A DNA stretch of 64,000 nucleotides from Octopus vulgaris (GCA_951406725.2 OX597827.1:59086001-59150000), one strand, 5' to 3'; shown: positions 6,229-48,961, counted from the first letter of the stretch. Numbers and translations are program-made. The notes: a model not told the origin generated them from the letters alone.

Positions 6229-6308
6229 TTGATAAAGTTACCGACGTTCCCAACTTGAACGAGCAGATACAGAAAGAGTTACAAGCGAGCACCTTTTACC
6301 TGGCGGCG
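6229..6308 (+). CDS. Ferritin gene A, helix-A exon (V)[26 protein letters not shown]
   Basis: ttttttcag acceptor and gtaagt donor; aligns to ferritin INRQINLELYASYVYLSM (E27, Y34 kept); paralogous to gene B exon 48885-48961. Confidence 0.9.
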
Positions 6309-17804: not shown

Positions 17805-17840
17805 ATTAAGGATATTTGCGACCTATTCAGCAAAGATGAT
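17805..17840 (+). CDS. Ferritin gene A, B-C loop microexon a1 (IKDICDLFSKDD, 36 nt)
   Basis: tttctctgttgcag / gtaagt; phase 0-0; same length and xxxICxxxS pattern as gene B microexon 45058-45093. Confidence 0.85.
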
Positions 17841-17926
17841 GTAAGTATTGTTGATATAGTAAATATATTTTACCAGACATGACGAAATTCCATGACTGTC
17901 TGTGAGTTTACTGAGAATATCACACA

Positions 17927-17982
<56 letters not shown>

Positions 17983-18879
17983 ACACACACATACACATAC
18001 ACACCCATACACACATACACACACTCACACGAACATGCACACACACATATATATATATGTGTACGGGTGTGTACGTATGCGTATATTCTTTGACTTTATT
18101 CTTTTATTTGTTTCAATACTTATGTACATACACATACATACATACATACATACATACATACATACATACATACATGTATGTGTAAACTCTTATGAAGTAA
18201 CTGATTGGTTTGAATAAATTCCAAATTGATATATCTAATTATTATCCCTCCATAAACCCTATTTTACTAAATAAGGGGCTCGTCTTTGTGATGAACAACT
18301 CAAATTAATTTAGAAAAGAGGTAAATATTATTTTAGCAGCCAAGACGCTTTTAATTAATTTGAGGGTAAATATTGGACAAAAAACGGCAGACCGAACAAC
18401 TTTCATACTACAAAGGAGTCCAATTTTATATTAAAAATTATATTAAAACTATGTAAAGTGTGTATATTTTCCTTTTTTAATTTCTGATATATATTGGATA
18501 ATAAAACGAATGGTTTACACCTGGTAGCTTACTGGGAAAGCACGGTCACTTTCAGTGATTAATAATAAATTCTCGTATATTCCATCATCCGTCTTTCATT
18601 TGCCATATATATATATATATATATATATAAAGCGATGAATAGATTTTTGCCGAAATCATGGTTCACTTTGTTCTCTTACTTTATTATCATCTTATAATCA
18701 TCTCATAATAATGACTTTTATGACTTTTATTACTACCTCAGTTCATCTAAATGTATATATTTGTCGTTACCTGTCATAAAAAGCCTTTTTTCATTTGCAA
18801 TGTGCATTTTCGTTGATTTTTCATATTTTACCCTTACATTTCCACGTGTATTTTATATTTTCTTTTGGTAACATATTTC

Positions 18880-18917
<38 letters not shown>

Positions 18918-18925
18918 GCATCTAT

Positions 18926-18961
<36 letters not shown>

Positions 18962-19151
18962 CGCGTGCATGCATGCATGTATTTATGTATGTATGCATGT
19001 ACGTATGAATGTATGTATGTATGTATATGCATACATACGTTTGCGTAAAAGAATTGTTAAATTACCTTTAAAATATTGCATGCATCTACTCGGCAGCATT
19101 AATGTGAAAACTGCAAACTGATGTTTTTTTATTCTTCTTTTTTTTGTCTAG

Positions 19152-19169
19152 ATTTGCTCGGATAAAAAT
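19152..19169 (+). CDS. Ferritin gene A, microexon b1 (ICSDKN, 18 nt)
   Basis: Long T-rich tract + gtctag acceptor, gtaagt donor, phase 0-0; flanks homologous to microexon b2 at 27058. Confidence 0.65.
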
Positions 19170-20943
19170 GTAAGTAACCTTCCCACACTAAGTATTTAAA
19201 CTGTGTTTTCTTTTGTGTTCTTCGTATGTATAGTATCGTCTAATGATTATGCTATGATAGATCAATGAAGATTTTGTAAGTATCTCTATCCTGCTTATAG
19301 CACTTCCCTAATAATTTGCAAGAGATTTTGGGTGGCCGTCATTCTCCAATCAGGATGTAGCCAGTCTCCAGCAGCTTCACATAGTCGTCTGAACTGAGCC
19401 TAAGGCCCTGTTCAAAGATGAGTGGATGAAGCCTGGTGTGCGGACGTAGTCAGAACGCCTTCTGTTTAGTTAGTCACGGCTTCGTAGTCTGCATCTGTCC
19501 ATGTCTTGTCTTACAGCCTTTGTTGTGTTCACAGAGTTGTGATCTGCAGTCAGGACGGCAATTTATTACCCGGCCCGAATCATCATGATACAGGTAATTA
19601 TTTTCCAGTATTCAGATGGCTAGCAGGGCTCCATGTCAACTAACTGCTTCTCAATTACAACTTTAATCTTTATGCAGGAGTGGCTGTGTGGTAAGTAGCT
19701 TGCTAACCAACCACATGGTTCCGGGTTCAGTCCCACTGCGTGGCATCTTGGGCAAGTGTCTTCTGCTATAGCTCCGGGCCGACCAATGCCTTGTGAGTGG
19801 ATTTGGTAGACGGAAACTGAAAGAAGCCTGTCGTATATATGTATATGTATATATATGTGTTTGTGTGTCTGTGTTTGTCCCCCTAGCATTGCTTGACAAC
19901 CGATGCTGGTGTGTTTACGTCCCCGTTACTTAGCGGTTCGGCAAAAAGAGACCGATAGAATAAGTACTGGGCTTACAAAGAATAAGTCCCGACTAAAGGT
20001 GGTGCTCCAGCATGGCCGCAGTCAAATGACTGAAACAAGTAAAGGAGTAAAAGAGTATACCCTTGAATGTTCAATAATACATCAAACTGTTTTTGAAAAA
20101 AAAGGAGGCTTAATGAAGTCATCACATTCGACCTGAAACCATTTAGCTGAATAGATTTGAATGTGATATCGAAGCACCCTGCCCGTTGGACTCATGCCGC
20201 CCGGTGCAGGAATCGAGCCCACTTCGTGGTTCCAACACATTAACCACTTGGTGACCTGCATTTACATGGCAGTGTAGAGACGTGGCGTGAGTAAGAAAAG
20301 AAAATACTTTTGGGACATAAAAACTCATCTTATTATTGTTCATGTTATCTTGTAGGCAAAGTTGAATGAGAAGAGACTTAAGGCATTCAAGAACTACAAA
20401 AATATGACTCTACTACTGTTGTTCTAAGAACTACTGCTGCTGTTGTTGTTGTTGTTGTTGTTAAGCAACAAGACGGGTAAGGGTGATTAGGTGATGGTCT
20501 AGGGTTTAGGGGCGGGAGATCCCAGACCTTGGAAAAAAAAAACTTTGGTCGTCTTGTTGTTTCGAGGGCTCTTCGTTGACGCCCGACACCACTGAAAGGT
20601 GGCCCTCGAAGTCGCTGGAAATGGAGATCTCCAGGTCCAAAATCTTGAACGGCTACTGCTGCTGTTGGTATTGCTGCAACAGCTTCTTTTCCTCAACAAG
20701 CACAGCCCTGTTTATCATTGTTTATCCCAAAACAGATCAAAGAGGTAAAAGATCCCATCACCTTTAAACGGAATTTGGACAAATTTCTCCGAGTTTTAGT
20801 TCATGCAATTGAAAAACCCGCATTATTTATGGGATGACCCAATATATAGTGGACAGATGCAACATTAAATATACTTAATAGTTTATGAATTTATATGTAC
20901 TAAATTCTTTATCAAACCTACTATCTTATTTTCTCTATTGCAG

Positions 20944-20976
20944 AGTGACGATTGCAAACATTTGTACTCAGCAAAG
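20944..20976 (+). CDS. Ferritin gene A, microexon a2 (SDDCKHLYSAK, 33 nt)
   Basis: ttttctctattgcag / AAG|gtaagt; phase 0-0; duplicated flanks. Confidence 0.8.
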
Positions 20977-21824
20977 GTAAGTATTAATGATACAGTAAAC
21001 ATATCTTACCAGACATGACAAAATTTCATGACTGTGAGTTTGCAGAGAATATCACACAAAGAAAACACACACGCTCACACACACACACACGCACACACAC
21101 GCACACATACACATACACACTCTCACACACGCACACGCACAAACACACGCATACATGCACACACAGGCACACTCACGTGTATACACATACATGCACACGT
21201 ACACATATATATATACGTATGTGTACGTGTATGTGCGCGAACCTTGGAAGCAATCTTGGTAAGAATAAGACCATTATAACAACCAATCAACCTAAGAATT
21301 TTAAGAGGGATAATAATAATAGTGATAATGAAAATAATTATAGTAATGCTGGTAAAGATGATGTAAGTAAGAAAAGAAAATACTTTAGGGACATAAAAAC
21401 TCATCTTGTTATTGTTCATGTTATCTTGTAGGCAAAGTTGGATGAGAAGAGGTTTAAGGCATTCAAGAACTATAAAAGTATGGGTTTACTACTGTTGTTC
21501 TAAGAATTGTTGTTGTTGTTGCAAGTATTGCTGCTGCTGCTGGCATTGTTGGTATTGTTGCAACAGCTTCTTTTCCTCAACAAGCACAGCCCTGTTTATC
21601 ATTATTCCAAAACAGATCAAAGATGTAAAGAAACCCATCACCTTTAAACGGAATCTGGACAAACTTCTCCGACTTTTAAGTTCATGCAATTGAAAAACCC
21701 GCATTATTTATGGGATGACCCAATATATAGTGGACAGATGCAACATTGAATATACTTAATAGTTTATGAATTTACATGTACTAAATTCTTTATCAATCCT
21801 ACTATCTTATTTTCTCTATTGCAG

Positions 21825-21857
21825 AGTGACGATTGCAAACATTCGTGCCCCGCAAAA
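21825..21857 (+). CDS. Ferritin gene A, microexon a3 (SDDCKHSCPAK, 33 nt)
   Basis: ttttctctattgcag / gtaagt; phase 0-0; duplicated flanks. Confidence 0.8.
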
Positions 21858-22094
21858 GTAAGTATTAATGATACAGTAAACATATTTTATTTATTTATTT
21901 TTTTATTTTTATTTTATCTAGTTTCAGCTCACTAGCTGTGGCCATCTTACTAGACATTATAAAATTTAATGACTGTGAGTTTACTGAGAATATAACACAC
22001 AGAAAACACACACGCATACACACTCAGACACATACACATAGAAACACACACACACATACACACACTGCACACACATACACACACACACACGCAT

Positions 22095-22140
<46 letters not shown>

Positions 22141-22168
22141 GAAAAAAGCAACAAGAATGGATTAAAAT

Positions 22169-22253
22169 CTCGGTACGATCGTTTCGTACGAGGACATCTT
22201 TAATAAGCTACAAAAAATGCAGTGAATACAGATGGCTCGTACTCGTCAGCCGA
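22169..22253 (-). ncRNA. Type I hammerhead ribozyme motif, Penelope-associated type
   Basis: Minus strand: tcgg-CTGACGA-GTACGAG..CTCGTAC-GAAA-CGATCG-TA-ccga; complete core, stems I and II, palindromic stem III, GUA cleavage triplet. Confidence 0.75.
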
Positions 22254-23951
22254 AAAAACATCAGAGAATTCCCAAACATCAAAAGGGGTAGATACAAAAG
22301 AGGTTGTAAGATTAACTGCATTGAAGAAAGTTTAATCCATTCTTGTTGCTTTTTTCCTATTTGTAATCACCCCACTTGTCGTATGGTTAACACCATATAG
22401 ATTTCCGGTGCATCCTAGTTAAGGACCATATTCATGTGAATTCTTTAGAATTCACTTGAATCTCAATTACTTAACCGAGTATATCTATATATATATATAT
22501 ATATACGTATGTCTAAACATAATAAAATAGGGTAATAATAAATTATTATTACCATTGGCCTAGCACAAAAAACGAATTAGTCATTAGACTATATATTATT
22601 CATATAGAAATATAATAAGAGGCTTCCAAATAGGAAAGCGTTGTGCTAGAAAGAGCAGTAGAAATCTCAAAAACCAGTAAAAAAGGATAAATTCCCGAAA
22701 GGAATGAAAATTAAAAACGTTTACGATAAACGTTTTTAATTTTCATTCCTTTCGTGAATTTATCCTTTTTTGTGTTCTAGCACAACGCTTTCCTATTTGG
22801 AAACCACTTATTGTATATATATATATATACGTATGTGTATGTGTCTGTAAGTATGCGTATATTTTTGACTTAACTCTTTTACTTGTTTCAGTACTTTGCA
22901 CATACACACATATGCATACATGCATGTATGATGGCACGTCGGACACCATCCCAGAATTTCTGCGTACCCGTGCTATTGCTAGATAGCCGTTGAGCCTGCG
23001 CTAGGTTAATCCTACATTCCAGCAGGTCTTGTTTTTAATCCAGGCTAGCCTGGTGGGGGTACCGGTTTATTCGCCGACAACCGGACCATGCAACAGGTTG
23101 TACTGGATTCCATGTCACGAGTAGCACTTGTGAGAGCTTCATAAGTGACCCGACATAACATACATACATACATATATACATACATATATACATACATACA
23201 CACTACATACATGTATGTGTAAACTCTTATGAAGTAACTGATTGATTTGAATAAATTACGGATAAAATATAAAGTTTATCCAAATTGATATATCTAATTT
23301 TTATCCCTCTATTAACCCTATTTTACTGAATAAGGAGCTCATCTTTGTGATGAACAACTCAAATTTATTTAGAAAAGGGGTAAATATTATTTTAACAGGT
23401 AAGAAGCTTATAAATTTGAAGGTAAATAATGGACAAAAAACGGCAGACAGAACAACATTCATATCACAAAGGAGTCCAACGATTCCGCACAAATTACTGA
23501 TTTAGTAAGCGTTCATATATTTCAGTGTTTAAATAGGCAATATCCTGAACTAATGAAGGGATTATATACGGATGGCGCTTTATTTGCTGTTTATATGTGA
23601 AGTAAGATTAACTGAGAAAGGTGTAGAATAAACGCTTTGAATTTTTAAAGGCCTTAGCACTATGAACCTTCCTGGAGAATGCATGTGTATATGTACATTT
23701 TCTAGATTTTACTTTGGATCGTAATACGGGGCTTTTTAATCAGTATCAGAAACCAACTGAAAACTTCAGATATATGAGTCGAAAATCCAACCATCCAAAG
23801 CAATTACAAATTCTATAATTGGAAGTGTCTCCTTTAGAATTTCTATATTTTCAGCTATTGACAGATGCAGCATTAGATATACTTAATAGTTTACGAATTT
23901 ACATGTACTAAATTCTTTATCAATCCTACTATCTTATTTTCTCTATTGCAG

Positions 23952-23984
23952 ACTGGCGATTGCACAATTTCGAGCCCCCAAAAA
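23952..23984 (+). CDS. Ferritin gene A, microexon a4 (TGDCTISSPQK, 33 nt)
   Basis: ttttctctattgcag / gtaagt; phase 0-0; duplicated flanks. Confidence 0.8.
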
Positions 23985-24103
23985 GTAAGTATTAATGATA
24001 CAGTAAACATATCTTACTAGACATTACAAAATTTCATGACTGTGAGTTTGCTGAGAATATCACGCAAAGAAAACACACACGCTCACACACACACACACAC
24101 ACT

Positions 24104-24160
<57 letters not shown>

Positions 24161-24474
24161 AGACACATACACACACACAGACGTGCACACACGCACACAC
24201 ACATACACATATATATATATGTATCTGTATATGTATGTATGTACGAGTATATTCTTTGACTTAATTTTTTTACTTCTTTCATTACTTGTGCACATACATA
24301 CATTTACATACATCCATATACATACATACATACATACATGCATGCATGCATACATTCATACATACATACATACATACATACATACATACATACATACATA
24401 CAAACATACATACATACATACATACATACATACATACATACATACATACATACATACATACATACATACATACG

Positions 24475-26450
24475 TGATGGCCACCCTTTACAAACATTAT
24501 GCGCTCTATGACTGACTTATATTTTGCATTTGCGGCTCCGTTGGTGGCTAATGAAACCTGCTCTTGACAAGCATACACGACTGCAAACATTGCAAACTAA
24601 GCTTTCCCCATTCACTACACTAGCAGTGCGCTTTCGAGCAGTACGCTTAAATTCTTCGTGCAGAATACGTGCTCTCTCAAAGGTGTTGATCCCCTCCTTA
24701 ACCTGCTCCCTCCATCTGTGCCAATGACAGTCATTGCTCTCCCATTTCATCTCCTGCGTATCACAGGCCTTTAATGAGGACTTGACAAAATCCTTAATTC
24801 GTAGCCTCGGTTTCTGCCGAGGTCTCTTTCCACTAACAAGTTCTCCATATAGCATCTGTTTAGCGATCCGGCTATCCTTCATTCTAATAAGGCGTCCAGT
24901 CCAAAATAACCAGTGCTTGTGCGCCATCCCTGCAATACTCAAGATATAAGCTTTCCTCAGGACCTGTTTGTCTTGTGTTTTTAAGATCCAGCCAAAATTC
25001 AGAATGTGTCTCAGACATCTCTGATGAAAGCGTTCAATGACCTTTACATGACGTGTGTAAAGGGTCCATGTCTCACATGAGTAAAGAGGCGATGTCAGCA
25101 CACATGCACGGTACACAACAATTTTTGTTTCCCTTGTGATGCCATGCTGGGACCAGATACGAGACTCAAGAGACCGGAAGGAATCAGTTGTTCTCAGCAG
25201 CATGAAAGATATTTCATCATCCAGAGATCAAGAACGGCTGAGTGTGCTGCCCAGGTAGACAAACTTGTCTTGCAATTTCAGTATTGTTCCTTCAACCAAG
25301 ATAGCTGATTCCACATACGGATTTCCTGGTGCAGGCTGCAATATAACAATTGTCTTCTCCAGACTAATGCTGAGTCCAAATGCCTTGCAAGAAACAACAA
25401 TACGATTCATAAGTATTTGCATGTCATCCACTGTATGAGTGACGAAGTCACAGTCATCTGCATAAAAGGTGTCACGAATAAGAGACTGGAAACTTTTGAA
25501 TTGGCCGCAAATCGGCGCAGATTAAAGAGGGGGCCAGAAGATCGATTCCTGACATATATTCCCATAGTCCTAACCTTGGCAAAGCATGAGTAAAAACAGC
25601 AGCAAAGTACAAAGAAAAGAGAGTTGGGGCAAGGATGTTACCCAGCTTGACACCATTCTCTACAGGAATGGGTCCCGCCATACCACCACCACCATTGATC
25701 CAAGCATCCATTCCATCATGAAATGATTTAATTATAGATATAAAGTGATACGGACATCCAAGCTTGCCTAGCATTTTCCATAGCAGGGTCTTATCCACAG
25801 TATCAAAGGCATTTGTTAAATCAGTGGACAAGATCCATATCCTGCTCATAACACTTCTGCAAGTCCTACTGTGAAAATTATATCCATCGCCCCTCTACCA
25901 AATCGGATTCCACGTTAAGATTCAGATGGGACATCATTTACGAGACACCCATTCAGGCTGATAAGAAGAATATTTGCCAGAACCTTGCCAGCAGATGATA
26001 GTTGAGCAATAGCTCTGTAGTTACCACACGTTATTCTGGCCTCTTTTCCTTTATAGAGAGGAAGAATAATTGCATCCTTCTAGTCTGTAGGCATTGCACC
26101 ATTCCCTCAGACTATACTAATAAGTTCATGAAGTGGCTGTATGATTTAATCACCACTAAATCGTAAGAGCTCAGCACAAATTCCATCCCTTCCGGGTGCC
26201 CTAACAAGATTCAATTTTCTTGTTGCTGTCATTACCTCATCTATTGAGGATGTTGAATTTACGGAACCAATGATAGGTCTCTCTTGCATAGTATCAATCA
26301 CTGTTTCATCCACTGTTTCATTCACTGTTTCATAGTATCAATCACTGTTTCATCATGGTTCAGGAGTTAAAAGAAGTGTTCAATCCAGCGACCTGTGATT
26401 TCTGTTGCTTTAGTAAATAGAGTAGCAAACCCCTTGGAAAACAAAGGAGC
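24475..26450 (-). mobile_element. RTE-clade LINE, 5'-truncated, degraded RT
   Basis: DLTNAFDTVD, GVKLGNILAPTLFSLYF, FYADDCDF, KFVYLGS, LYSCETWT, C-terminal CNVCSRVC..H; tail abuts (TACA)n. Confidence 0.9.
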
Positions 26451-27057
26451 TGATGCCTTATAATGTAACACACTCACCGGTAAAATTTCCACTTATTTCT
26501 TATTTTTATTTTCCTAAAATTTTCGTTGGTCTTGCAACCTTTTTACCGGTGAGTGTGTTACATTATGAGGCACAAAAAGAAAATGACTCTCCCCAGACAC
26601 AACAGAATATGCTTCAACACACGAACTCATGTAAAGAATCTTGCAAACCAAATCCAAAACGAAACATATATATATATACACGCATATATACATATATATG
26701 ACGAGCTTCTTTTGAGTTTTCGTGTACCAAATCCACTCACAAGGCTTTGGTCGGCCCGAGGCTATAGAAGAAGACACTTGCCCAATGTGCCATGCAGTGG
26801 GACTGAACCCGGAACCATGTGGTTGGTAAGCAAGCTACTTACCACACAGCCACTTCTGCGTATGTATATACGTATGAATGTATGTATGTATGTATGTATG
26901 TATGTATGTATGTATGTATGTATGTATGTATGTATGTATGTGTGTATGTATATGCACACATACATTTGCGTAAAAGCATTATTGAATTACCTTTGAAATA
27001 TTGCATGTATCTACACAGCAGCATTAACATGAAAGCCGTTAATTTCTTTTTGTCTAG

Positions 27058-27093
27058 GTTTGCACTGAGATAACAGGAACAGAGCATACCCAA
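27058..27093 (+). CDS. Ferritin gene A, microexon b2 (VCTEITGTEHTQ, 36 nt)
   Basis: tttctttttgtctag / gtaagt; phase 0-0; starts [LIV]C like gene B microexon 43327-43371. Confidence 0.8.
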
Positions 27094-27248: not shown

Positions 27249-27319
<71 letters not shown>

Positions 27320-27423
27320 GAGGCGCGATGGCCCAGTGGTTAGTCTTATGGCATTGGGGTGTGTTCATAGTACCGTTTACTCGATCGACCAATTGAGCAA
27401 GCGAAACTATGAACGCACCTATA

Positions 27424-27460
<37 letters not shown>

Positions 27461-27580
27461 TGTGTGTGTATGTGTGGAGGCGCGATGGCCCAGTGGTTAG
27501 TCTTATAGCATTGGGGTGTGTTCATAGTACCGTTTACTCGATCGACCAATTGAGCAAGCGGAACTATGAACGCACCTATA

Positions 27581-27615
<35 letters not shown>

Positions 27616-27622
27616 CGTGTGC

Positions 27623-27665
<43 letters not shown>

Positions 27666-27781
27666 TGTGTGTGTATGGAGGCGCGATGGCCCAGTGGTTA
27701 GTCTTATAGCATTGGGGTGTGTTCATAGTACCGTTTACTCGATCGACCAATTGAGCAAGCGGAACTATGAACGCACCTATA

Positions 27782-27834
<53 letters not shown>

Positions 27835-28146
27835 TGTGTGGAGGCGCGATGGCCCAGTGGTTAGTCTTATAGCATTGGGGTGTGTTCATAGTACCGTTTA
27901 CTCGATCGACCAATTGAGCAAGCGGAACTATGAACGCACCTATGTGTGTGTGTGTGTGTGTGTGTGCGTGCGTGTGCGTGCGTGTGCGTGCGTGTGTGTG
28001 GGTGTGTGTGTGTGTGTATGTGTGTGTGTGTGTGTGTGTGTGGAGGCGCGATGGCCCAGTGGTTAGTCTTATAGCATTGGGGTGTGTTCATAGTACCGTT
28101 TACTCGATCGACCAATTGAGCAAGCGGAACTATGAACGCACCTATA

Positions 28147-28191
<45 letters not shown>

Positions 28192-28301
28192 TGTGTGGAG
28201 GCGCGATGGCCCAGTGGTTAGTCTTATAGCATTGGGGTGTGTTCATAGTACCGTTTACTCGATCGACCAATTGAGCAAGCGAAACTATGAACGCACCTAT
28301 A

Positions 28302-28366
<65 letters not shown>

Positions 28367-28486
28367 TGTGTGTGTATGTGTGGAGGCGCGATGGCCCAGT
28401 GGTTAGTCTTATAGCATTGGGGTGTGTTCATAGTACCGTTTACTCGATCGACCAATTGAGCAAGCGGAACTATGAACGCACCTATA

Positions 28487-28567
<81 letters not shown>

Positions 28568-28683
28568 TGTGTGTGTGTGGAGGCGCGATGGCCCAGTGGT
28601 TAGTCTTATAGCATTGGGGTGTGTTCATAGTACCGTTTACTCGATCGACCAATTGAGCAAGCGGAACTATGAACGCACCTATA

Positions 28684-28761
<78 letters not shown>

Positions 28762-28910
28762 AGGCGCGATGGCCCAGTGGTTAGTCTTATAGCATTGGGG
28801 TGTGTTCATAGTACCGTTTACTCGATCGACCAATTGAGCAAGCGGAACTATGAACGCACCTATAATGTGTGTGTGTGTGTGTGTGTGCGTGCGTGTGCGT
28901 GCGTGTGTGT

Positions 28911-28952
<42 letters not shown>

Positions 28953-29055
28953 AGGCGCGATGGCCCAGTGGTTAGTCTTATAGCATTGGGGTGTGTTCAT
29001 AGTACCGTTTACTCGATCGACCAATTGAGCAAGCGGAACTATGAACGCACCTATA

Positions 29056-29110
<55 letters not shown>

Positions 29111-29240
29111 TGTGTGGAGGCGCGATGGCCCAGTGGTTAGTCTTATAGCATTGGGGTGTGTTCATAGTACCGTTTACTCGATCGACCAATTGAGCAAGCG
29201 GAACTATGAACGCACCTATAATGTCTGTGTGTGTGTGTGT
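27249..29240 (+). repeat. Tandem array of 11 copies of a ~105-bp core (SINE head + hairpin) separated by variable (GT)n spacers
   Basis: Cores start near 27319, 27476, 27677, 27840, 28042, 28197, 28382, 28579, 28760, 28951, 29116. Confidence 0.97.
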
Positions 29241-29365: not shown

Positions 29366-29479
29366 GACATATGTAAGAAAGACAACATTCCCCTATACGT
29401 GATGAAATTAGCGCATAAATTGGAATTACTGGTCTATGATAAACTGGTTAACATAGTTAAAGAATCAAACGACGAGGAG
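29366..29479 (+). CDS. Ferritin gene A, helix-C exon DICKKDNIPLYVMKLAHKLELLVYDKLVNIVKESNDEE
   Basis: ctttttttatag / GAG|gtaagt; 114 nt phase 0-0, same length as gene B exon 42311-42424; E107-equivalent kept; absent from ORF track. Confidence 0.9.
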
Positions 29480-31329: not shown

Positions 31330-32700
31330 GATATGTTTCGACCAAAGATTGGTCCAGGCCATGTCTAACTTAATAGCACCACCTGATAGGATTATCTAAA
31401 TCCTGTTTAAGTCAAGTTTTGTTTATGGTCCATTCAAGTAGTAAGTTTTTGTTGGGTGAGTTGTATCCAATTATGGGTGGCTTATCTGGTATTCCATGAA
31501 GGAATCTATCCAGACTTCGTTTAAAGTTGGTTGGATCCTTTTCCTCTTTGATCTTTTCGGGACAATGTTAAATAGGGCAGGGCCTGTTGAGGAAAAGAAA
31601 TTATGTTGCAGTGTACATGTATGCTGTGATCTTGAATTGGGCAGGGGACGTATGGCCCGTGGTCCCAGTCTTGGATGAACCGTGAAGCTAATGTTCAGGT
31701 CGTTTGGGCAAAGTTGGCGGTATATTCTCCACATCGTACAATGACGTACCGCTCACGGCGACGCTGGAGAGAGTAGAGTTTCAAGGCTTTAAGGCGGTCC
31801 CAATAATCGAGAGCAGCCATGCCTTCAATTCGTTTAGTGAGTGCCCTCTGGGGTGATTCAATACTCGAAATGTTTTGTCTTGTATGGGGAGATCACAGTG
31901 GGCAGCAGTATTCGAGATGTGGCCGTATAAAGGAGGAGAAAAGTGGTATGATGACACCTTGTTCTCTGGACCGAAAAGTTCTTAAGATCCAGGAACTCAT
32001 CCTACGAGCTATATCGACCTTCTTGTTGATGTGTGCACTCCAACTGTGATCGTCATCAACAATTACACCCAGGTCTCAGATATTGTTAGAGGCTGTGAGC
32101 GGTTCCCCTGAAGGAAGAGAGTATGGCTGTTTTAGTGAGGAATTTCTTCCAAAATGCATCAGCTCAAATTTTCCCTCGTTCAGTTGCATTTTGTTTCTGT
32201 CTGCCCATTGACTCACAGCATATAGATCAGACTGGAGTTGAGTTCGGTCTGCTTCTTCATTGATGATTTGCTGGAGCTTAGTGTCATCAGCAAATATTTT
32301 CACTTTGCAGTAATGTACGACACTGGAAAGGTCGTTTATGTAAATTATAAAGAGTTGCGGGCCCAAGACAGTCCTCTGGGGGACACCGCTGGTGACTTTT
32401 GCTGGGCTTGAGTGGACTCCATCAACTACAACATGTTGTGTTCTATTCGCCAAGAAATACTTAATCCAGTGTAGAAGTTTTCCACGGATTCCAACATTTG
32501 CCAATTTTGAGAGTAGGATATTATGGTCAACCCTGTCGAACGCTTTACTGAAGTCAAGATATATGACATCAGAGTTTGAACCTGTTCCCAAGGCTTTGAG
32601 TATATCTTCAATATGGTGTAAGAGCTGTGTTAGACAGTCCCTGCCACAGCGAAAGCCATGTTAATTTGCATTTAGGAGTTTGTGGGTCTCCAGGAAGTCA
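31330..32700 (-). mobile_element. CR1-group LINE RT fragment with 3' end
   Basis: YLDFSKAFDRVDH, SGVPQRTVLGP, IYINDL, IFADDTK in ORF 32076-32591. Confidence 0.9.
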
Positions 32701-32744
32701 GCTGTCCTTGATCTTAACACTATTTCAAACACTTTATCAAACGC

Positions 32745-32832
<88 letters not shown>

Positions 32833-40198: not shown

Positions 40199-40369
40199 TT
40201 AATGTTTGTCTTGCATGTTTGAATTACTCCCACTCAAGAAACGATTATCCATCATATATTGTCCCACGTAGGATTGATTGAACCTTGAAAGTTGGGTAAC
40301 GTAGTCTGACAGCTGTTTGATGGATTCCACTTGTTCATCCAAATATTCATGTTCAAGGAAATGTTGCAA
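40199..40369 (-). CDS. Ferritin gene B, last exon LQHFLEHEYLDEQVESIKQLSDYVTQLSRFNQSYVGQYMMDNRFLSGSNSNMQDKH*
   Basis: ttttgtttcag acceptor; ferritin helix D signature with Q141; 171 nt including stop. Confidence 0.96.
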   Translation of the reverse strand: MQHFLEHEYLDEQVESIKQLSDYVTQLSRFNQSYVGQYMMDNRFLSGSNSNMQDKH

Positions 40370-41425
40370 CTGAAACAAAATAAAAAAAGAAAACATTGTA
40401 AAAAGAAATATATATAAAAAGCAAATAAGTAACAAGGATGTTCATGGGTCAGTGCATTACAGCCGTTTCAAGCGGCTCCATTTAATCGATCAATGCAAAC
40501 ATTATACAAATTTGAAATAAACCACGCTCCCCAGACACATACGACCATATAGATTTCCAACATGCAGAATATAACTCCATTATAATTTTATAATAAATAG
40601 TTAATAAATTGTATCGTATTTATTATTCTATTTTTTTATTTAAACAAGAATATATTTGTTAAGATATTTCGTGTTTTACAAGATTGATTACGTATATTTA
40701 TTAATTTATCTAATTAATTATATTATTGTTTTTATCTTTAACCTGAAGAGTGGCTATATTTATACTGAAGTGGTTTTACTATTATTATTACTATTATCAT
40801 TTCTTAAATATAGCCATGAAACACGTTATTCTACTAAATATAAACGTTTTATTTACTATTTTTCACATTACTTAATCATTGTTATATGTTTTATCTTATA
40901 TTTAATCTTTCTATAATATGTAATTTTTCTAAATGTTATAATTTTTCATTATTGAATTGATAAAAGGTGTTTTTTTCTAATATATATATATAAAAGAAGT
41001 GTGTATAATTGTAAATAAATCACAATTATAATGGAGGGGGTTGGTAAAACCCTTACATGTCTAGAATTATACACAGTTCTTTTACGAAAAAATTTTGGGG
41101 TTCCTAACTTTGAAATTGCAATATAGGACTAACCTTTTATATAAGTTTTGAATTTTATGTCATGTCGCCCTCCGACGGCTTTATTGCGAAGAGATATAAT
41201 ATGAGTGGTTATGATGGCTTTATAGCGGTTTTGACTGCTATTTCTAGACATGTAAGGGATTTTGCAACCCTCTCCGTTATAATTGTGATTCATTCACAAT
41301 TATACACATTTCTTTTATGAAAAAAATTCTTTGATTGCATGTTCTGGCCAGTAATATATTCATAAATAATTTTGAATTGTTTACGATATATCCTTCGTAA
41401 TGTATTTTTACATTCTTCTTTAATT

Positions 41426-41494
<69 letters not shown>

Positions 41495-42107
41495 TACATA
41501 CACACACACACTCACACACACATATGTAATGTATATGTAGATATACACACACACCCACAAGGTCTTCTTTCAGAATTTCGGGAAAGCTATTTGTCACATC
41601 CCTGGCCAGCCACTTGTAGCGCCTCAAACATGAAGGGAACGGCCGGGACCCTAGGATAATGGAAGCAAACGCTGTGAGCTTTGTATGCCGAACGCACAAG
41701 GATACTCAGACATCCCCTGAAACCTGGATCGCCGAACACACGCCAAGAAATCTATAGTCCTTGCATCCATTTCAAACGCTACCTGCTGCAAGCATGGAAT
41801 TCCCTGTTCTCCGATTAGACCCGGAAGGGTCCTTACGATCTAAAAGCAGCCCAAGGGAAAAATCCCATGTTCCCCTTCTTTTGGCCCACAAAATTTGGTC
41901 TAAGGGATATAACCCGTCCTCACTGACTCCAGACAATTAATTTTTTTGTTGATATACTGACCAAATGACCATAACGGATTCCTGCCTCCCAGAGGTGAAG
42001 AGTTACATTTGTCTTCGACTTCAGAGTTTCACGAGACGTTCGCGGGATAAAGCTCTTTGTGAATGCGAAACCATTGGTCACTCTGTTACTGGACATAGAC
42101 TTAAATG

Positions 42108-42151
<44 letters not shown>

Positions 42152-42310
42152 AGAAAAGAGGGAAATGATGTCCTGTGACGTAAGGAAGAAAAGGCAAAGA
42201 GAAAGAGATATGTTTAGGATACAATATTTAACAAAGGGTGATATTCTAGTGGCAGTGGTGTGTGTTTGTGTGTATGTAATATATATATATATACAGTTCA
42301 TATTGTTCAC

Positions 42311-42424
42311 CTGTGGGTCCATACTGATATCAACAATATTTCGAAGGGAATTATAGACAGCTTTTTCTAGGCCTACGGCATCTTCCATAGCAAGCAAGGG
42401 GACATCTTCTGCATGGATCTTTAC
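42311..42424 (-). CDS. Ferritin gene B, helix-C exon VKIHAEDVPLLAMEDAVGLEKAVYNSLRNIVDISMDPQ
   Basis: tttttcag / CAG|gtgaac; 114 nt phase 0-0; matches ferritin AMExALxLEKxVNQSL...DPQ. Confidence 0.95.
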
Positions 42425-43326
42425 CTGAAAAAGTAGAACAAACCAAAGTGATCATGAAATTGAACATTGAAAGCTGAATATAGTGTTCGTGAATGTAAAA
42501 GAAAACAAAAGAACTACTTAATCACAGATGTTGCATGGCCCAATGATGATAGTATCGGGAAGAGAAGCTACTGTCTTAAGACTAATCTTCCTCCGAGTCG
42601 TATTTGCTTTATGGATGATGGTAGTCTCTCTCGAGCTGCTACCTCGTGGCGCATCTCCGCTATACTTGAACGGGCAAGATTGACTCACTCCACTGGACTA
42701 CTGCCGATAAGCTCCTAGGTTGCCGATTCGCCCAGAGGAAGGAAATGTTTGTATTGCGAATCAAAGAATAAATATTTATACTGTTGAAGTTAACGGAAAA
42801 TCTTGACTCTTTCTTCAATTAATATTAAATGTAAAGGATGCAAGCAGTACCCATCCAGTGCGGGAATCCCTCATCTTGTTACAGGCTATTCGGTAGATTA
42901 CATTCATATACATCGCCGGGCAGGTAATTATAACAGTTGAGCAGCACACACTCATCAGCATGATTTAACGTCCGTTTACCATGCTAGCATGAATGGGACG
43001 GAAGCCCAGGAATCGCATTAGGACTAAAGGATTTCAGTAAATAAGAACTGTCATGGGCAGTTGACAGTGTTGATCGACCGTATTGGTTAGTGTTAGTGCG
43101 ACGTGTGTTGGTTTAATACCGTACCTACGTTTGAATAGTACGAAGTGCGTTCTGTATGAACATAGTAATTCTGTGATAGGTTATTCTAGATAACCACATT
43201 CCAAATATTGATGCTATTTTACACCCGGCGTGTACACGCACGTTATAACACAAACCATGTACAAATAGTAAGTAAAGAAGAGAAGAAATAAAATACAGTT
43301 TAGTATTAATAAAAAGTTTGACTCAC

Positions 43327-43371
43327 CCCAGAACATCCAGAAATTGTTGCTGGCATCACAATAGCACATAG
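43327..43371 (-). CDS. Ferritin gene B, B-C loop microexon b (LCAIVMPATISGCSG, 45 nt)
   Basis: ctttttttcttttataaatttccag / GGG|gtgagt; phase 0-0. Confidence 0.8.
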
Positions 43372-43454
43372 CTGGAAATTTATAAAAGAAAAAAAAGAGG
43401 CTAATACATAGGACAAAAAATATGCCCTACATACATACATACATACATACATAC

Positions 43455-43485
<31 letters not shown>

Positions 43486-43702
43486 CATACATACATACAT
43501 ACATACATACATGCTGACAGACAGACAGACAGGCACGCAGTCCAGTGGCTGATACAGGTAAGCGATAAAAGATATATCTTTTGCCAACCTTTTACGGAGA
43601 CGTAAACCAAAATGTTGGAGAATGGGTAGATACACGCATATATACACACATGTATGCATACATACAGACAGGCAGACACACATACACACACACATATACA
43701 TG

Positions 43703-43743
<41 letters not shown>

Positions 43744-44273
43744 ATATATATATGTAGAGGCGCAATGGCCCAGTGGTTAGGGCAGCAGACTCGCAGTCGT
43801 AGAATCGCGGTTTCGATTCCCAGACCGGCGTAGTGTTTATTGAGGTTGCACCTGCTGAGGAAGGTCCCTTTGATATGATTAAATACTGTAAGTTTTTGGA
43901 TAATTTTCGGTTAAAAGTTGGCGGTTTTTTTACTGTAGCCAGCGAAGGACTGCGTCTGCGCAGTAAAATTTGAAAAGTTAGTTCGTATAAACACGAGACA
44001 AGTAGTCTTGTTTGTCTCGTGTGGATATGTTTAACCCTATGTTGGACCTGCTGAGGAAAGTCAGACCTTGTGAGTTCCCCTTGACTCGCTAAAAGAAGAT
44101 TAGAAACCAATTGGTCCAGGAAACTAGATGGTAAATGATTTTCATTTCCAAATTTATTCCTGTCGAATTTTATCCCCAATTTTTGTGGTTATAGAACCGA
44201 GCTGTTCTTTCTAGCGTGTAGAATCCCTATAAGTGGTTTCCTTGTGTGTTTAAATATACACTATATCGTATGA

Positions 44274-44347
<74 letters not shown>

Positions 44348-44692
44348 CATTATATTAAGGGTTATTACTACACGTAATGCTTCACATAGTAATAAATAGA
44401 CACGGGACCGAAAGTGGGGGAATTAAACTTGGCAGCCACCTCTTAAAAACAGATTTAGTCGCAAATCATTAATGATTTCAGGGTTAGCGTACATAATAAG
44501 TCTCCAAGCATCAGTGCAAACATAATCAGCACACATAAAAATGAACATCTGTACATACCAAGCTAACAGCAAGCGTATCCTATACGTAGTATATTTAACG
44601 AGAAACAATATATGTTTTGTATTAATTTTTGTTCCTGAACTGGTTTTTCATGCTGGCTACTTGATGAATTCTTATTTAAATTTCATCCTTAT

Positions 44693-44733
<41 letters not shown>

Positions 44734-45057
44734 TTTTCAGATTTCATCAGTATTTTACTGACTCATGTATAATCTAAAAGGTAAAAGAGAGAGTGAAAGA
44801 GGCTGAAGAGGAGAGAGGAAGAATGGCGGACATAGAAAGGAAGTAAGAGAGAATAATCGACCCTATTTATGGACTGGTATTTTGTTTATTAATTCCGGAA
44901 GAAATTGGCCTCAAAGTTGATCTCAGCTAGATTAGAACTCAGAATAGAGAGAGCCGAAACGAATACCGCAAGGCGCTCCACTTGACGTTCTAACGCCCTT
45001 GTTAACTCACTGTCTTTTGGGTTTTACGAATTTGAAGAAAACTGGAATGCTGCTTAC

Positions 45058-45093
45058 ACATTTGTAGGAGAGATGTTTACAAATGGCATCAAC
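45058..45093 (-). CDS. Ferritin gene B, B-C loop microexon a (VDAICKHLSYKC, 36 nt)
   Basis: ttttctctctctctacag / gtaagc; phase 0-0; similar to gene A a1 (IKDICDLFS) and a2 (DCKHL). Confidence 0.85.
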
Positions 45094-46119
45094 CTGTAGA
45101 GAGAGAGAAAAAAAGTATAATTGCGTTAACATCAGAGTATGACAAACATAATCATTTTAACTTAAGTATAATCACGTTAATGTAAATGTTAAACTGGGTC
45201 ATGTTAACATAGGTATTAAACTCAGCCATATTAGCATTAGTGTATAAGCATAATCTCTTGAACAGAAATTTTCTAACGGACTAGTTTCCTAGTTGCAAAA
45301 TCAGTGATGGTATAGCACTGTATTTTCTATATATTGCAAGCGAGGTTGAACTGCGGCCATGCAGCTTAATCGCGCTCTGTATTGGATCTCTTCGATGGTG
45401 AGTACTCACCACTGACGAGATCCAATACAAATCGAAACCACGTGGGCTGGTGGTCTCATAGCTAGGGTGGCAGGAGTTATCTACCGCTTGCAATATATAG
45501 AGAGAGTGCGAGAAGCGCACTAAATAAACCAGCAGGAGGAGTTGTCTTCCTGGGGTTAAATGACAATGTCGTCATCATTAAGGTGGCCATAAACAATACC
45601 ATAATGATTTTAAACCTAAATAAAATCACGTTAACGTGTTATGTGCATCATGCTAACATTAGTGCGTATAGACAATTAAGTTAACGTAAGTTCATTAAAC
45701 ATGATTACTACAACGTAAGTACATAAACAGTCACATTAACATAAGTGCGCCACACATAGACACACTAACATAAGCATAATCAAGAAGACACATTAACTTT
45801 AGTACATAAATAACTGTTAACATAAGTGCATAAGTATAACTGTGTTAAGATAGGTGCATAAACATAATTCTGTAAATAAACAGAATCGGGTTAACATAAA
45901 TTGGTTAACATAATCGTGTACATAAACATAATTGCGTTAACATGAACCACAAGGATTAAAACAATTAACAATTAACACTTGTCTTTTTGTTAATTTTGTA
46001 ATTTCAGTTGCACAGCAGTTTACAGAAGGTGTTACAGGAGTTAGGTAGGAAAAGAGAAGGTGGGGCGCTGTCAGATGTGTTTCTTCTAGAAATACTGTCA
46101 ATATTATAGATAGCACAAT

Positions 46120-46570
46120 GGCGGTGAGCTGGCAGAGTCGTTAGCACGCCGGACAAAGTGCTTAGCAGTATTTCGTCTGCCGCTACGTTCTGAGTTCAAA
46201 TTCCGCCGAGGTCGACTTTGCCTTTCATCCTTTCGGAGTCGATAAATAAAGTACCAGTTGAGTATTGGGGTCGATATGTAAGGCGGTGAGCTGGCAGAAA
46301 CGTTAGCACGCCGGGTGAAATGCTTAGCGGTATTTCGTCTGCCGTTACGTTCTGAGTTCAAATTCCGCTGAGGTCGACTTTGCCTTTCATCCTTTCGGGG
46401 TCGATAAATTAAGTACCAGTTACGCACTGGGGTCGATATAATCGACTTAGTACCTATGTCTGTCCTTGTTTGTCCCCTCTATGTTTAGCCCCTTGTGGGT
46501 AATAAAGAAATAGATATAATCGACTTGCTCTCTTCCTCAAAATTTCTTGCCTTGTGCCCAAATTTTAAAC
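46120..46570 (+). mobile_element. Tandem copies of SINE family C (GGCGGTGAGCTGGCAGAAACGTTAGC head)
   Basis: Same family in tandem at ~55930-56483(-) and 57490-57910(-); single copies near 8470-8675, 12885-13070, 37030-37237, 53840-54005. Confidence 0.8.
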
Positions 46571-46678
46571 CAGTCGATAAAGAGGTATGCAAATCTCAAT
46601 TGTAACTTGGACCTAAGTTCATTGCTATTCTAGCCTTCCTGCTTTCATATAAAAATTCAGTGGGGTAATTTAACTTGC

Positions 46679-46825
46679 CTGGATATTCCTCACTTCCGGT
46701 GTAGTCAGTCGCTTGTTCATGTAAGTCATCAGTTTGTCCGCATGTTCCTTCTCTTCAAGAGACATTTCCATAAAAAATTTGCCGAAACCGCGGAGTGCAA
46801 TTTTGCTGCTTTCGAAAAAATGGCC
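46679..46825 (-). CDS. Ferritin gene B, helix-B exon GHFFESSKIALRGFGKFFMEMSLEEKEHADKLMTYMNKRLTTPEVRNIQ (GC donor)
   Basis: tactttcag acceptor; CAG|GCAAGT donor gives 147 nt, identical to the paralogous exon; EEKEH motif. Confidence 0.93.
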
Positions 46826-47410
46826 CTGAAAGTATATATTTATAAATAAATACATACATACATACATACATACATACATACATACATACATACATACATA
46901 CACACATACACACATACATGCATACATACATGTTTTAATCTTTTCTGCCCATTTTTTCAATGAGCTTGTTAAACTTTTTTATATTCTCAACATACTGTTG
47001 TCACCAAAGACTGTATATTTATATGGATTATAGTACTCTGTGTCAACCAATATTCTGTGCATGTTTGAATATACAGATACAATACCAATATCAATTCCTT
47101 CTGGAAACTATCTTAAGTATGTCCTTGAGAACGATTATTTATGTAATCTTTTTTGCCCAATATTTTAAGGAACTTGTTGAACTTTTTTATGTCCTTAACA
47201 TGTCCCTGTTACCAAAGACTGTATATATATATGTAATGTAGCAATTTGCAACAACCAATAATTAACGCAACCAAACTTCCACATGTTACTTTTGACAATC
47301 TTTTTCCAAAGAGTGAAACCGGTAAAGTAAATAAACATCTTTTAAATTGCATTTTCAAACCTTCTTTCGTATATAATTCCACTCGTGCGGTACCCCACAA
47401 CTCCACTTTG

Positions 47411-47464
<54 letters not shown>

Positions 47465-47489
47465 TTATTTATTTATTTATATATATACC

Positions 47490-47795
47490 CATCATCGACC
47501 CTGTCGCATCATCGACTCCTTCACCTGCACCTCCAGCAATATCATCTATTACATCTCCTGCTCTTTCTCTGCCATTCCCTGTACATCGGACAAACGGGAC
47601 GCCGCTTGGCTGACCGGTTCGCGGAACACCTCCGAGACATCCGCCTCGCCAATGACACACCAGTCTCACGCCATTTCCGCTCCACCGGTCACTCCTTGCA
47701 ACACCTGTCAGTGTTCGGATTCTCCTTGCACAGAGGCCATCCGGATTCCTGCTTGCGCCGTGAACAGGGATTAATCTTCTCTCTTCGCTCTTTTA
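47490..47795 (+). mobile_element. Penelope-like GIY-YIG endonuclease fragment
   Basis: FTCTSSNIIYYISCS / LYIGQTGRRLADRFAEHLRDI...VSRHF across a frameshift. Confidence 0.85.
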
Positions 47796-48284
47796 CGTCC
47801 TTCGTCTTTTCACCCCTACTCTCTTTCCCTCCTCATCCCATCTTTTCCTTCTTCTCCCTTCTTCCCTCTTCTTTTTTCTTCTTTTCAAATTTTGGGTTGG
47901 TAGATACATAGACTCCAAATAGGCACCGCAATTGCTTTTAGCTGTTATTAATGCTGACCAACCTCATAGTGTATTTACTAACCTCACTCAATCTCACATC
48001 AGTAAATTCATGTCTCTATAGAGACTGCATGCTTCCAGTGGAGAAAGTAATGAATTTATAATAAAGGGGAACAGAGATTTATATCCAGTTTTATTCAGCA
48101 GTTAATTACGTTTTTTCATTGAGTATTAGTATTAATGCTTCATGTCAGGCTATCTTAAGTATGTTTTTTACTGTTATTATCATCCCCCTCCCCAACATTG
48201 CTACTTGTACTGCTCTTATTATTGATAATATTGTTAATGATGAGCTATAAGTATATTATTTAATTTGCTAATTTTATTATTAAA

Positions 48285-48680
48285 CTAGCAGTATCGCCCG
48301 GCGTTGCTCGGGTTTGTTTCGACCCTTTAGAATTGAAATTTTTGAAAAGTAAAAATTTTGCATTATGTAGCTTGTTATTCTCTTTAAGTGAACATTTTTC
48401 TGGTTGAAATACACCGAAAAATGGCGACACAGCAGTCAAAAAAATCGTAAAAAATAGGGATTTTCATAGAAAAAAGCACCTTTTTGATGTAAATAATTTT
48501 TGGTCTTAACATGGTCCGATTTGAATTTTATATTCTACGGAATAAAGAGCAAGCCTTCTTCTATCATACTCTCAATTTTTGTCAACTTGCGCCGCAGGGT
48601 CTCGGAGGAGATAGTGTTAGTTGAAGGCTAACAAACCTGACACACACAGACAACTTCAGCTTTATATATATACAGATTAG
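48285..48680 (-). mobile_element. Non-autonomous Helitron-like element
   Basis: Minus-strand 3' end GAGCAACGCCGGGCGATACTGCTAG|T; the same terminus on + at ~63448-63474. Confidence 0.7.
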
Positions 48681-48884
48681 ATTTAAGATTTGTAATGTAC
48701 AAAAGTATAGAGTGACCCATCAGATTAATGTAAATTTTTTATTATAATTGAACATAAAAACAGAATTAAAAGTTATGTATGTATGTATGTATGTATGTAT
48801 GTACGTGCAAGCAAAAACTCGACGTATTCATTGGAAACAGAAATTTGGCGAATCATTTACAACATGCAAAAAGGTGATACTTAC

Positions 48885-48961
48885 ATATGCCTGATAAAAC
48901 AAGCTAGCTTGATTCTCCATTGTTATTTGTTCATTAAGATTTTCACGGTCTGTGCTGGTTA
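48885..48961 (-). CDS. Ferritin gene B, helix-A exon (L)TSTDRENLNEQITMENQASLFYQAY
   Basis: tttgttgttatag / gtaagt; 77 nt phase 1-0; NLNEQI..E.QAS.FY shared with gene A; absent from ORF track. Confidence 0.9.

Follow-up and report, generated by a model that had tools for sequence, protein, structure and literature searches.

Why should duplicated exons diverge faster than the introns that surround them? The question is raised by a 64,000-nt stretch of Octopus vulgaris DNA (GCA_951406725.2 OX597827.1:59086001-59150000; the whole stretch is called the window and is numbered from its first letter), in which three 33-nt microexons, a2, a3 and a4, differ more from one another than their flanking introns do. 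An earlier note on this DNA had read the copies as functional, positively selected and built on a fixed cysteine scaffold, in the manner of toxin, immune and gamete-recognition genes. By its anatomy, the gene that holds them is a ferritin of the secreted, yolk type, its secretion and yolk role being putative. The exon excess recurs elsewhere in this gene and in a paralogue, and we think that selection for differing surfaces of the ferritin cage is its probable cause.

Divergence of the microexons and their flanks

The three exons lie on the plus strand between AG and GT in phase 0, and their last 25 upstream intron bases are identical, as are the GTAAGT donors; 26 to 27 bases on each side are the same in all three. 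A recount gave the same numbers as the hand counts of the earlier note: a2 and a3 differ at 5/33 exon nt (3 residue changes) and 3/135 upstream intron nt (Fisher test, P = 0.008), and a3 and a4 at 8/33 exon nt, all in residue-changing codons, and 4/92 intron nt (P = 0.0025), with both P values calculated on that note's own flanks. P values for a2 to a4 are nominal, the region having been chosen from a genome-wide scan. Over the full alignable flank, the excess held for a3/a4 (8/33 versus 10/180, P = 0.002) and a2/a4 (13/33 versus 9/180, P = 6e-7). Jointly, 13 of the 33 exon sites were variable, against 15 of 180 in the flank (P = 2e-5). When the alignment with flanks was retested with the splice signals excluded (40 nt before the exon and 20 nt after), as the note had proposed, the excess persisted (13/33 exon versus 14/120 intron sites, P = 6e-4). 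Among all 33-nt windows in the 213 aligned columns, the exon itself varied most (20,000 shuffles, P = 0.001), and 11 of 21 nondegenerate sites varied. CpG decay was rejected as the cause of the excess, given that 8 of the 13 exon changes are transversions.

Exon length, splice sites and a common TGC codon are indeed preserved among a2, a3 and a4. However, the invariant codon is not evidence by itself because a given codon would escape the 13 variable sites in these three copies with P = 0.21, and it is a1 and b2, rather than a2 to a4, that carry the family's conserved cysteines.

The excess recurs in independent comparisons that the earlier note had not picked. Shared flanks sort the microexons into an a-type (a1 to a4) and a b-type (b1, b2, and m1 and m2 of an inverted paralogue). 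Copy a1 differs from a2, a3 and a4 at 16 to 18 of 33 nt, versus 14 to 16% of the flank; m1 and m2 differ at 15/36 versus 14/157 nt (P = 9e-6); and b2/m1 gave P = 0.004. Since half of the original 36 nt of b1 has become intron, its comparisons (P < 0.001) were discounted, which left b2/m1, b2/m2 and m1/m2 as the clean b-type pairs. The exon for helix C differs from that of the paralogue at 41/105 nt versus 15/162 in its flanks, which were cut by eye ahead of microsatellites (P = 8e-9), whereas exons 1 and B were not faster than their own flanks. As a control pair, the cytosolic-type ferritins on C22 were rejected, since only their helix B and D exons align at the DNA level and no shared flanks were seen.

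A secreted-type ferritin with a variable outer face

An exon scan found six phase-0 microexons (a1, b1, a2, a3, a4 and b2) within 17805-27093, after a 147-nt exon with a Pfam Ferritin match. Flanked by the exons for helices B and C, they encode a Cys-rich insert of 63 residues within the BC loop, which faces outward; the remainder of the 258 residues is ferritin. The first and last cysteines of the insert are those conserved in the family, and a disulfide between them (Cys112-Cys160) is predicted. The helix B exon encodes a stretch found unchanged in P0001, an O. vulgaris protein that NCBI names ferritin, whose cluster includes two RefSeq isoforms of Octopus sinensis (258 and 247 residues) that differ solely by a2. 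The O. sinensis models contain a2, a3 and a4 in the same order, with a predicted isoform that includes a2 and one that does not. RefSeq isoforms are usually backed by transcript evidence, although these models are themselves predictions. Together with the retained frame, length and splice sites, they support the claim that the copies are functional. A search of sequencing runs with the last exon listed 24 runs, of which 20 contain part of the query and one is recorded as RNA, with 0.42 of the words; no weight is placed on it as a sign of expression. Between P0004 and P0005, inclusion of a2 raises the cysteine count from 9 to 10, so skipping of a2 could alter disulfide pairing or free a thiol on the cage. 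Beyond the two sister species, no orthologue with a2 to a4 was found among 11 near-length, 3 longer and 1 shorter matches, and these exons are absent from the 22 other sequences in the ferritin alignment.

P0004 matched Pfam Ferritin (PF00210) at 64.8 bits, above the curated cut-off of 24.5; Ferritin and Rubrerythrin were the only Pfam families matched, with no toxin or immune family among them. Its best Atlas look-alikes are ferritins, as are all Foldseek matches listed for its AlphaFold model. That model shows a confident four-helix bundle plus a short helix E (helices 37-64, 70-96, 175-203, 207-238 and 242-257), and solved ferritins align in two stretches, 40-106 and 179-254, on either side of the insert. 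Alignment to soybean ferritin indicates that all seven ferroxidase positions are kept (E48, Y55, E82, E83, H86, E190 and Q221), where the matching used E61 as what we take to be the seventh H-chain ligand. The other H-chain ligands are E27, Y34, E62, H65, E107 and Q141 (PMC7557750, in the part available). The ferroxidase site therefore appears intact and the iron-oxidizing core kept, and the protein would, by family membership, assemble into a 24-subunit cage.

The yolk-type assignment draws on both ends of the gene and on its relatives. A hydrophobic stretch at about residues 7 to 26 is helical in the AlphaFold model and may be a signal peptide. For an iron-responsive element (IRE), Rfam gave 0 matches in loci L046, L038 and L039, and a sequence search found one loop-like hexamer in the 400 nt that precede the ATG, which did not fold into a hairpin loop, with assumed bounds of the untranslated region. 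The available sections of PMC10799875 describe snail yolk ferritin (Lymnaea stagnalis and Biomphalaria glabrata) as marked by a signal peptide, the lack of an IRE and a 42-residue insertion, and as a digestive gland product taken up by oocytes; they report no documented homologue of the insert. When aligned, the octopus insert falls at the same position as the inserts of P0020 and P0029/P0168. A tree of 46 rows puts the protein in a 13-member clade (support 100/99), and under a midpoint root a 99/92 branch sets 22 other ferritins apart from it and from the records named yolk ferritin, although its internal link to those records is weak (75/79). A further ferritin gene (G000:C14:67652349-67652468; loci L005 and L052) is a candidate for a more conventional yolk-type copy; its helix B exon matches P0023, a protein that bears an insert and lies outside the 13-member clade.

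Comparison with O. sinensis revealed where the protein changes. In public models of the gene and its paralogue, 14 of 202 residues differ in the helix A, insert and helix C exons, versus 0 of 253 in the signal exon and exons B and D (P = 9e-6). Two reviews place the N-terminus, the BC loop and helices A and C on the outer side of ferritins, and helices B and D on the inner side (PMC7557750 and PMC13207978), and the changes between the species are thus biased to the outer face. This contrast is not a blind test because the split was noticed in the data before the reviews were consulted. In the neighboring ferritin gene, 1 of 90 outer-face residues changed (contrast, P = 0.028). The comparison of orthologues is largely free of the objection that gene conversion shaped the counts.

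Selection, conversion and the competing explanations

On balance, we favor selection for differing cage surfaces, acting partly by resisting conversion, as the probable explanation. Unequal crossing-over would have copied an ancestral a+b pair and then tripled the a-type unit; since the microexons are symmetric (phase 0), each copy keeps the frame and can be skipped. Known ferritin structures would place the insert and helices A and C on the outside of the 24-subunit cage, where selection may favor different surfaces among copies and paralogues by fixing residue changes. It would also reject conversion events that overwrite the exon differences, while the flanking introns homogenize and the catalytic, iron-oxidizing core stays fixed. 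A peak of exon divergence amid homogenized introns is described as a mark of selection under conversion (PMC3924837, from the portion available).

The likeliest role of such a variable coat would be to set the binding partner of the iron-loaded cage outside the cell. Since grafting of the human BC loop confers uptake properties on another ferritin (PMC7557750), recognition is, by analogy, a reasonable role for the insert. In our judgment, an octopus uptake receptor is the leading candidate for this partner, if somewhat short of an even chance; microbes that take iron from the cage are the next, with a modestly lower one; and some other partner is the least likely of the three. We offer more tentatively the picture of a secreted ferritin as a display platform, in which tandem, alternatively spliced Cys microexons would present a variable coat in an arms race with iron-taking microbes, in eggs or body fluids, or with a reproductive partner.

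The claim of positive selection is strengthened by the paralogue microexons, the helix C exon and the sister-species proteins, and is weakened at silent sites. With the intron as clock, omega (the ratio of nonsynonymous to synonymous rates, dN/dS) was 6 to 13 for a2/a4, a1/a3, m1/m2 and the final 29 codons of the exon for helix C; for b2/m2 it was 2.1. In pooled a2/a4, m1/m2 and helix C data, however, an exon-wide rate factor was needed (P = 0.002 with one site class and 0.005 with two) under our own codon model, which used fixed base frequencies and kappa. An omega above 1 is only marginally supported because silent sites are also raised. The a2 to a4 copies show signs of gene conversion as well: of the sites informative with a1 as outgroup, 5, 5 and 2 favor the respective three possible trees, a3 lacks any exon change of its own, and the paralogue flanks are patchy, with from 0/150 to 22/150 differences. 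The caution in the earlier note that splice constraint or conversion could explain part of the intron conservation therefore carries real weight. Under selection combined with conversion, silent sites would be expected to rise with the divergence peak.

Several observations weigh against selection on the surface. With long flanks, a2/a3 alone is borderline (5/33 versus 22/376, P = 0.056); b2/m2 did not reach significance (P = 0.067); and the paralogues do not differ significantly more in exons A, B and D than in the flanks (P = 0.12, 0.51 and 0.17). Of the three copies, a4 alone differs between the two species, with two changes, and the microexons alone do not differ significantly from those of the neighboring gene (5/76 versus 0/27, P = 0.21). 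Greater variation on the outer surface would be expected of ferritins in general. Residues 121 to 152 of the AlphaFold model have a per-residue confidence (pLDDT) below 50, so the insert may be a loosely constrained loop. Fast exons carry 4 silent changes versus 1.07 expected (P = 0.024). Once the exon rate was free, omega was 1.75 with one site class, not better than 1 (P = 0.17), and 2.6 with two, which was marginal (P = 0.04).

The main rival explanation is a nearly unconstrained linker, whose exons drift about neutrally while splice constraint and conversion keep the flanks young, with conversion tracts stopping at the diverged exon edges; the divergence would then require no selection. 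We regard this explanation as unlikely, though the likeliest of the rivals. A model with omega fixed at 1 and a 7-fold exon rate fits better than one with omega only, and the silent excess, the conflicting tree signals, the low pLDDT of the insert and the identical 26 to 27 bases beside a2 to a4 agree with it. Neutral drift does not explain, however, how a 33-nt exon was initially protected within blocks that are 92% identical. It also sits poorly with the excess in the structured helix C (39% versus 9% in its flanks, where the most diverged paralogue flanks seen reach about 15 to 18%) and with the clustering of orthologue changes in outer-face exons while the insert of the neighboring gene is unchanged.

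A locally raised mutation rate in the fast exons, which would lift silent and replacement changes alike, is improbable. Such a process has reportedly been proposed for conotoxin genes, and it would fit the elevated silent sites and the third positions of the helix C exon, which differ as often as the first and second (14, 15 and 12 of 35). Against it, exons 1 and B have not outpaced their flanks, the same Cys codon is kept in all eight a- and b-type copies, and the preponderance of transversions argues against CpG decay; we know of no mechanism for it.

Recruitment of the ferritin as a venom, mucus or egg-coat effector, its Cys-rich insert being a toxin-like or gamete-recognition module, is marginally less probable still. 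The putative secretion signal, Cys scaffold, exon-faster-than-intron pattern and lineage-specific duplication would all suit it, and here the likeness that the earlier note drew holds for the pattern, while the gene itself is a ferritin outside those known families. The protein has no family match besides ferritin-like ones, its ferroxidase ligands are intact, and the four accessions were not found in the available part of an octopus ink proteome supplement; among the best 2 of 57 mentions, the ferritin of the ink proteome is a cytosolic C22-type protein. Chance, in the form of small numbers picked post hoc from a large scan, or an assembly artifact can be set aside as very improbable even with exons of only 33 nt and a borderline a2/a3, since the replicates that the earlier note had not picked largely refute it and the three exons occur in the same order in the models of a second species.

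Growth of the insert and its known parallels

The full exon set maps to the window or the 20 kb that precede it.

Exons of the ferritin gene and the duplicated block that holds a2 (window positions unless a locus is named)
Feature	Position	Strand	Remarks
Exon 1, signal-peptide-like	L046:5543-5636		~14.4 kb upstream of window
Exon 2, helix A, outer face	6229..6308	+	Weak Pfam Ferritin match, E=0.09
Exon 3, helix B and start of BC loop	14027..14173	+	Pfam Ferritin E=4e-7, 30.4 bits; identical to part of P0001
Microexon a1, 36 nt, phase 0	17805..17840	+	Carries family-conserved Cys112; flanks ~80% like those of a2-a4
Microexon b1, 18 nt	19152..19169	+	b-type copy shortened from 36 nt; in P0001, P0004 and P0005
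Microexon a2, 33 nt, one Cys, optional	20944..20976	+	In isoform X1; skipped in X2 and P0001
Microexon a3, 33 nt, two Cys	21825..21857	+	No private exon change among a2-a4
Microexon a4, 33 nt, one Cys	23952..23984	+	2 residue changes versus O. sinensis model
Microexon b2, 36 nt	27058..27093	+	Carries family-conserved Cys160
Helix C exon, outer face	29366..29479	+	
Last exon, helices D and E, stop codon	34282..34434	+	
Duplicated block with a2	20652..21064	+	Self-BLAST 92% to a3 block

Relatives have just two such microexons, versus six here: the neighboring gene and the inverted paralogue have two each, and both of the latter's (m1 and m2) are b-type. In all 13 relatives aligned, seven of them named octopod records, a1 and b2 are the sites of the insert's two invariant cysteines. 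In the simplest history, an a+b pair would have been duplicated, the second a triplicated, and b1 cut from 36 to 18 nt. Alignment of b1 (19152-19193) with b2, m1 and m2 indicates that its old donor at 19188 was lost and replaced by a new one 18 nt upstream, inside the old exon, with the frame kept. A DNA search of the genome (G000) found only the four a-type units in the window; the other 36 matches listed cover the first 35 to 50 nt, the retroelement part. The a2 and a3 blocks begin in this retroelement fragment, of which 20674-20788 matches 31500-31611 on the opposite strand, and it is a possible substrate for unequal crossing-over, by analogy with the duplication of exons beside a transposable element in a schistosome micro-exon gene (PMC4350168). 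A broken element of the long interspersed nuclear element type lies at 31470-32750 on the minus strand of the last intron, with an RVT_1 match at 32079-32660; related fragments precede a2 and a3. At 27250-29240, in the intron that leads up to the helix C exon, stand eleven head-to-tail units of a 105-nt element plus a TG repeat, each with 0 to 2 differences from the reference unit; this array is a recent local amplification, and the paralogue has a single matching stretch.

The neighboring gene, a second ferritin of the secreted type, lies tail to tail with the first on the minus strand (40200-48960; microexons at 45058-45093 and 43327-43371). It uses a GC donor after its helix B exon and has changed slowly between the species (1/221 residues); its public O. 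vulgaris model, P0174, starts with 147 extra residues that are missing from the O. sinensis model, apparently through an annotation error. Its first microexon has four residues around the Cys in common with a2, which may be coincidence because other octopods differ at that place. The inverted paralogue, P0007, lies about 280 kb away on the minus strand (G000:C14, ~58.807-58.829 Mb; loci L039-L041). It is identical to the main gene over the 150 nt before the start codon, whereas the flanks of exon A are about 15% different, a pattern that points to patchy gene conversion over 280 kb.

Yolk-type ferritins and fast microexons are each known, and we found no report of both together. No paper joining ferritin, microexon and octopus was found in a literature search whose coverage left most subscription journals outside. 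Judged by title or the start of the abstract, none of the papers on octopus and yolk ferritin concerns this gene, and the ferritin passages in the available parts of PMC7850002, PMC9839350, PMC7551771 and PMC12046283 do not identify this paralogue. If selection on the cage surface is the cause, an outer face would be changing like a venom or host-defense gene on a fixed catalytic core, which would extend conflict over iron to an extracellular mollusc ferritin and reveal a way in which symmetric microexons can make up and extend the yolk-ferritin insert. With 2, 5 and 6 microexons, natural variants at the locus form a matched set for probing what the insert binds.

Ferritins are usually conservative proteins. 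Accelerated exon evolution is known from snake venom and conotoxin genes. There, too, the exons for the mature protein outrun the introns, the signal exon is conserved and cysteines are kept; the octopus product, in contrast, has no toxin family match and is an iron-storage cage protein with an intact predicted catalytic site. Exon 5 of the red and green opsins (PMC3924837) likewise combines high exon divergence, low divergence of flanking introns and signs of conversion, whereas in the octopus, microexons inside a single gene are among the duplicates too. The octopus protein resembles molluscan yolk ferritin in its signal-peptide-like start, the absence of a detected IRE and its insertion, and a Patella record named yolk ferritin aligns over the full length with 31% identity and an insert in the matching place; Ylistrum provides a further record of that name. 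It differs in its separate 13-member clade and in a 63-residue insert from six microexons, one of them optional, against 42 residues in snails. Finally, schistosome micro-exon genes (PMC4350168 and PMC10526429) share short exons, duplication beside a transposable element, fast change and a secreted product, the last being putative in the octopus. No homology to them was found, and their coding sequence consists mostly of microexons, whereas those of the octopus decorate a conserved enzyme scaffold.

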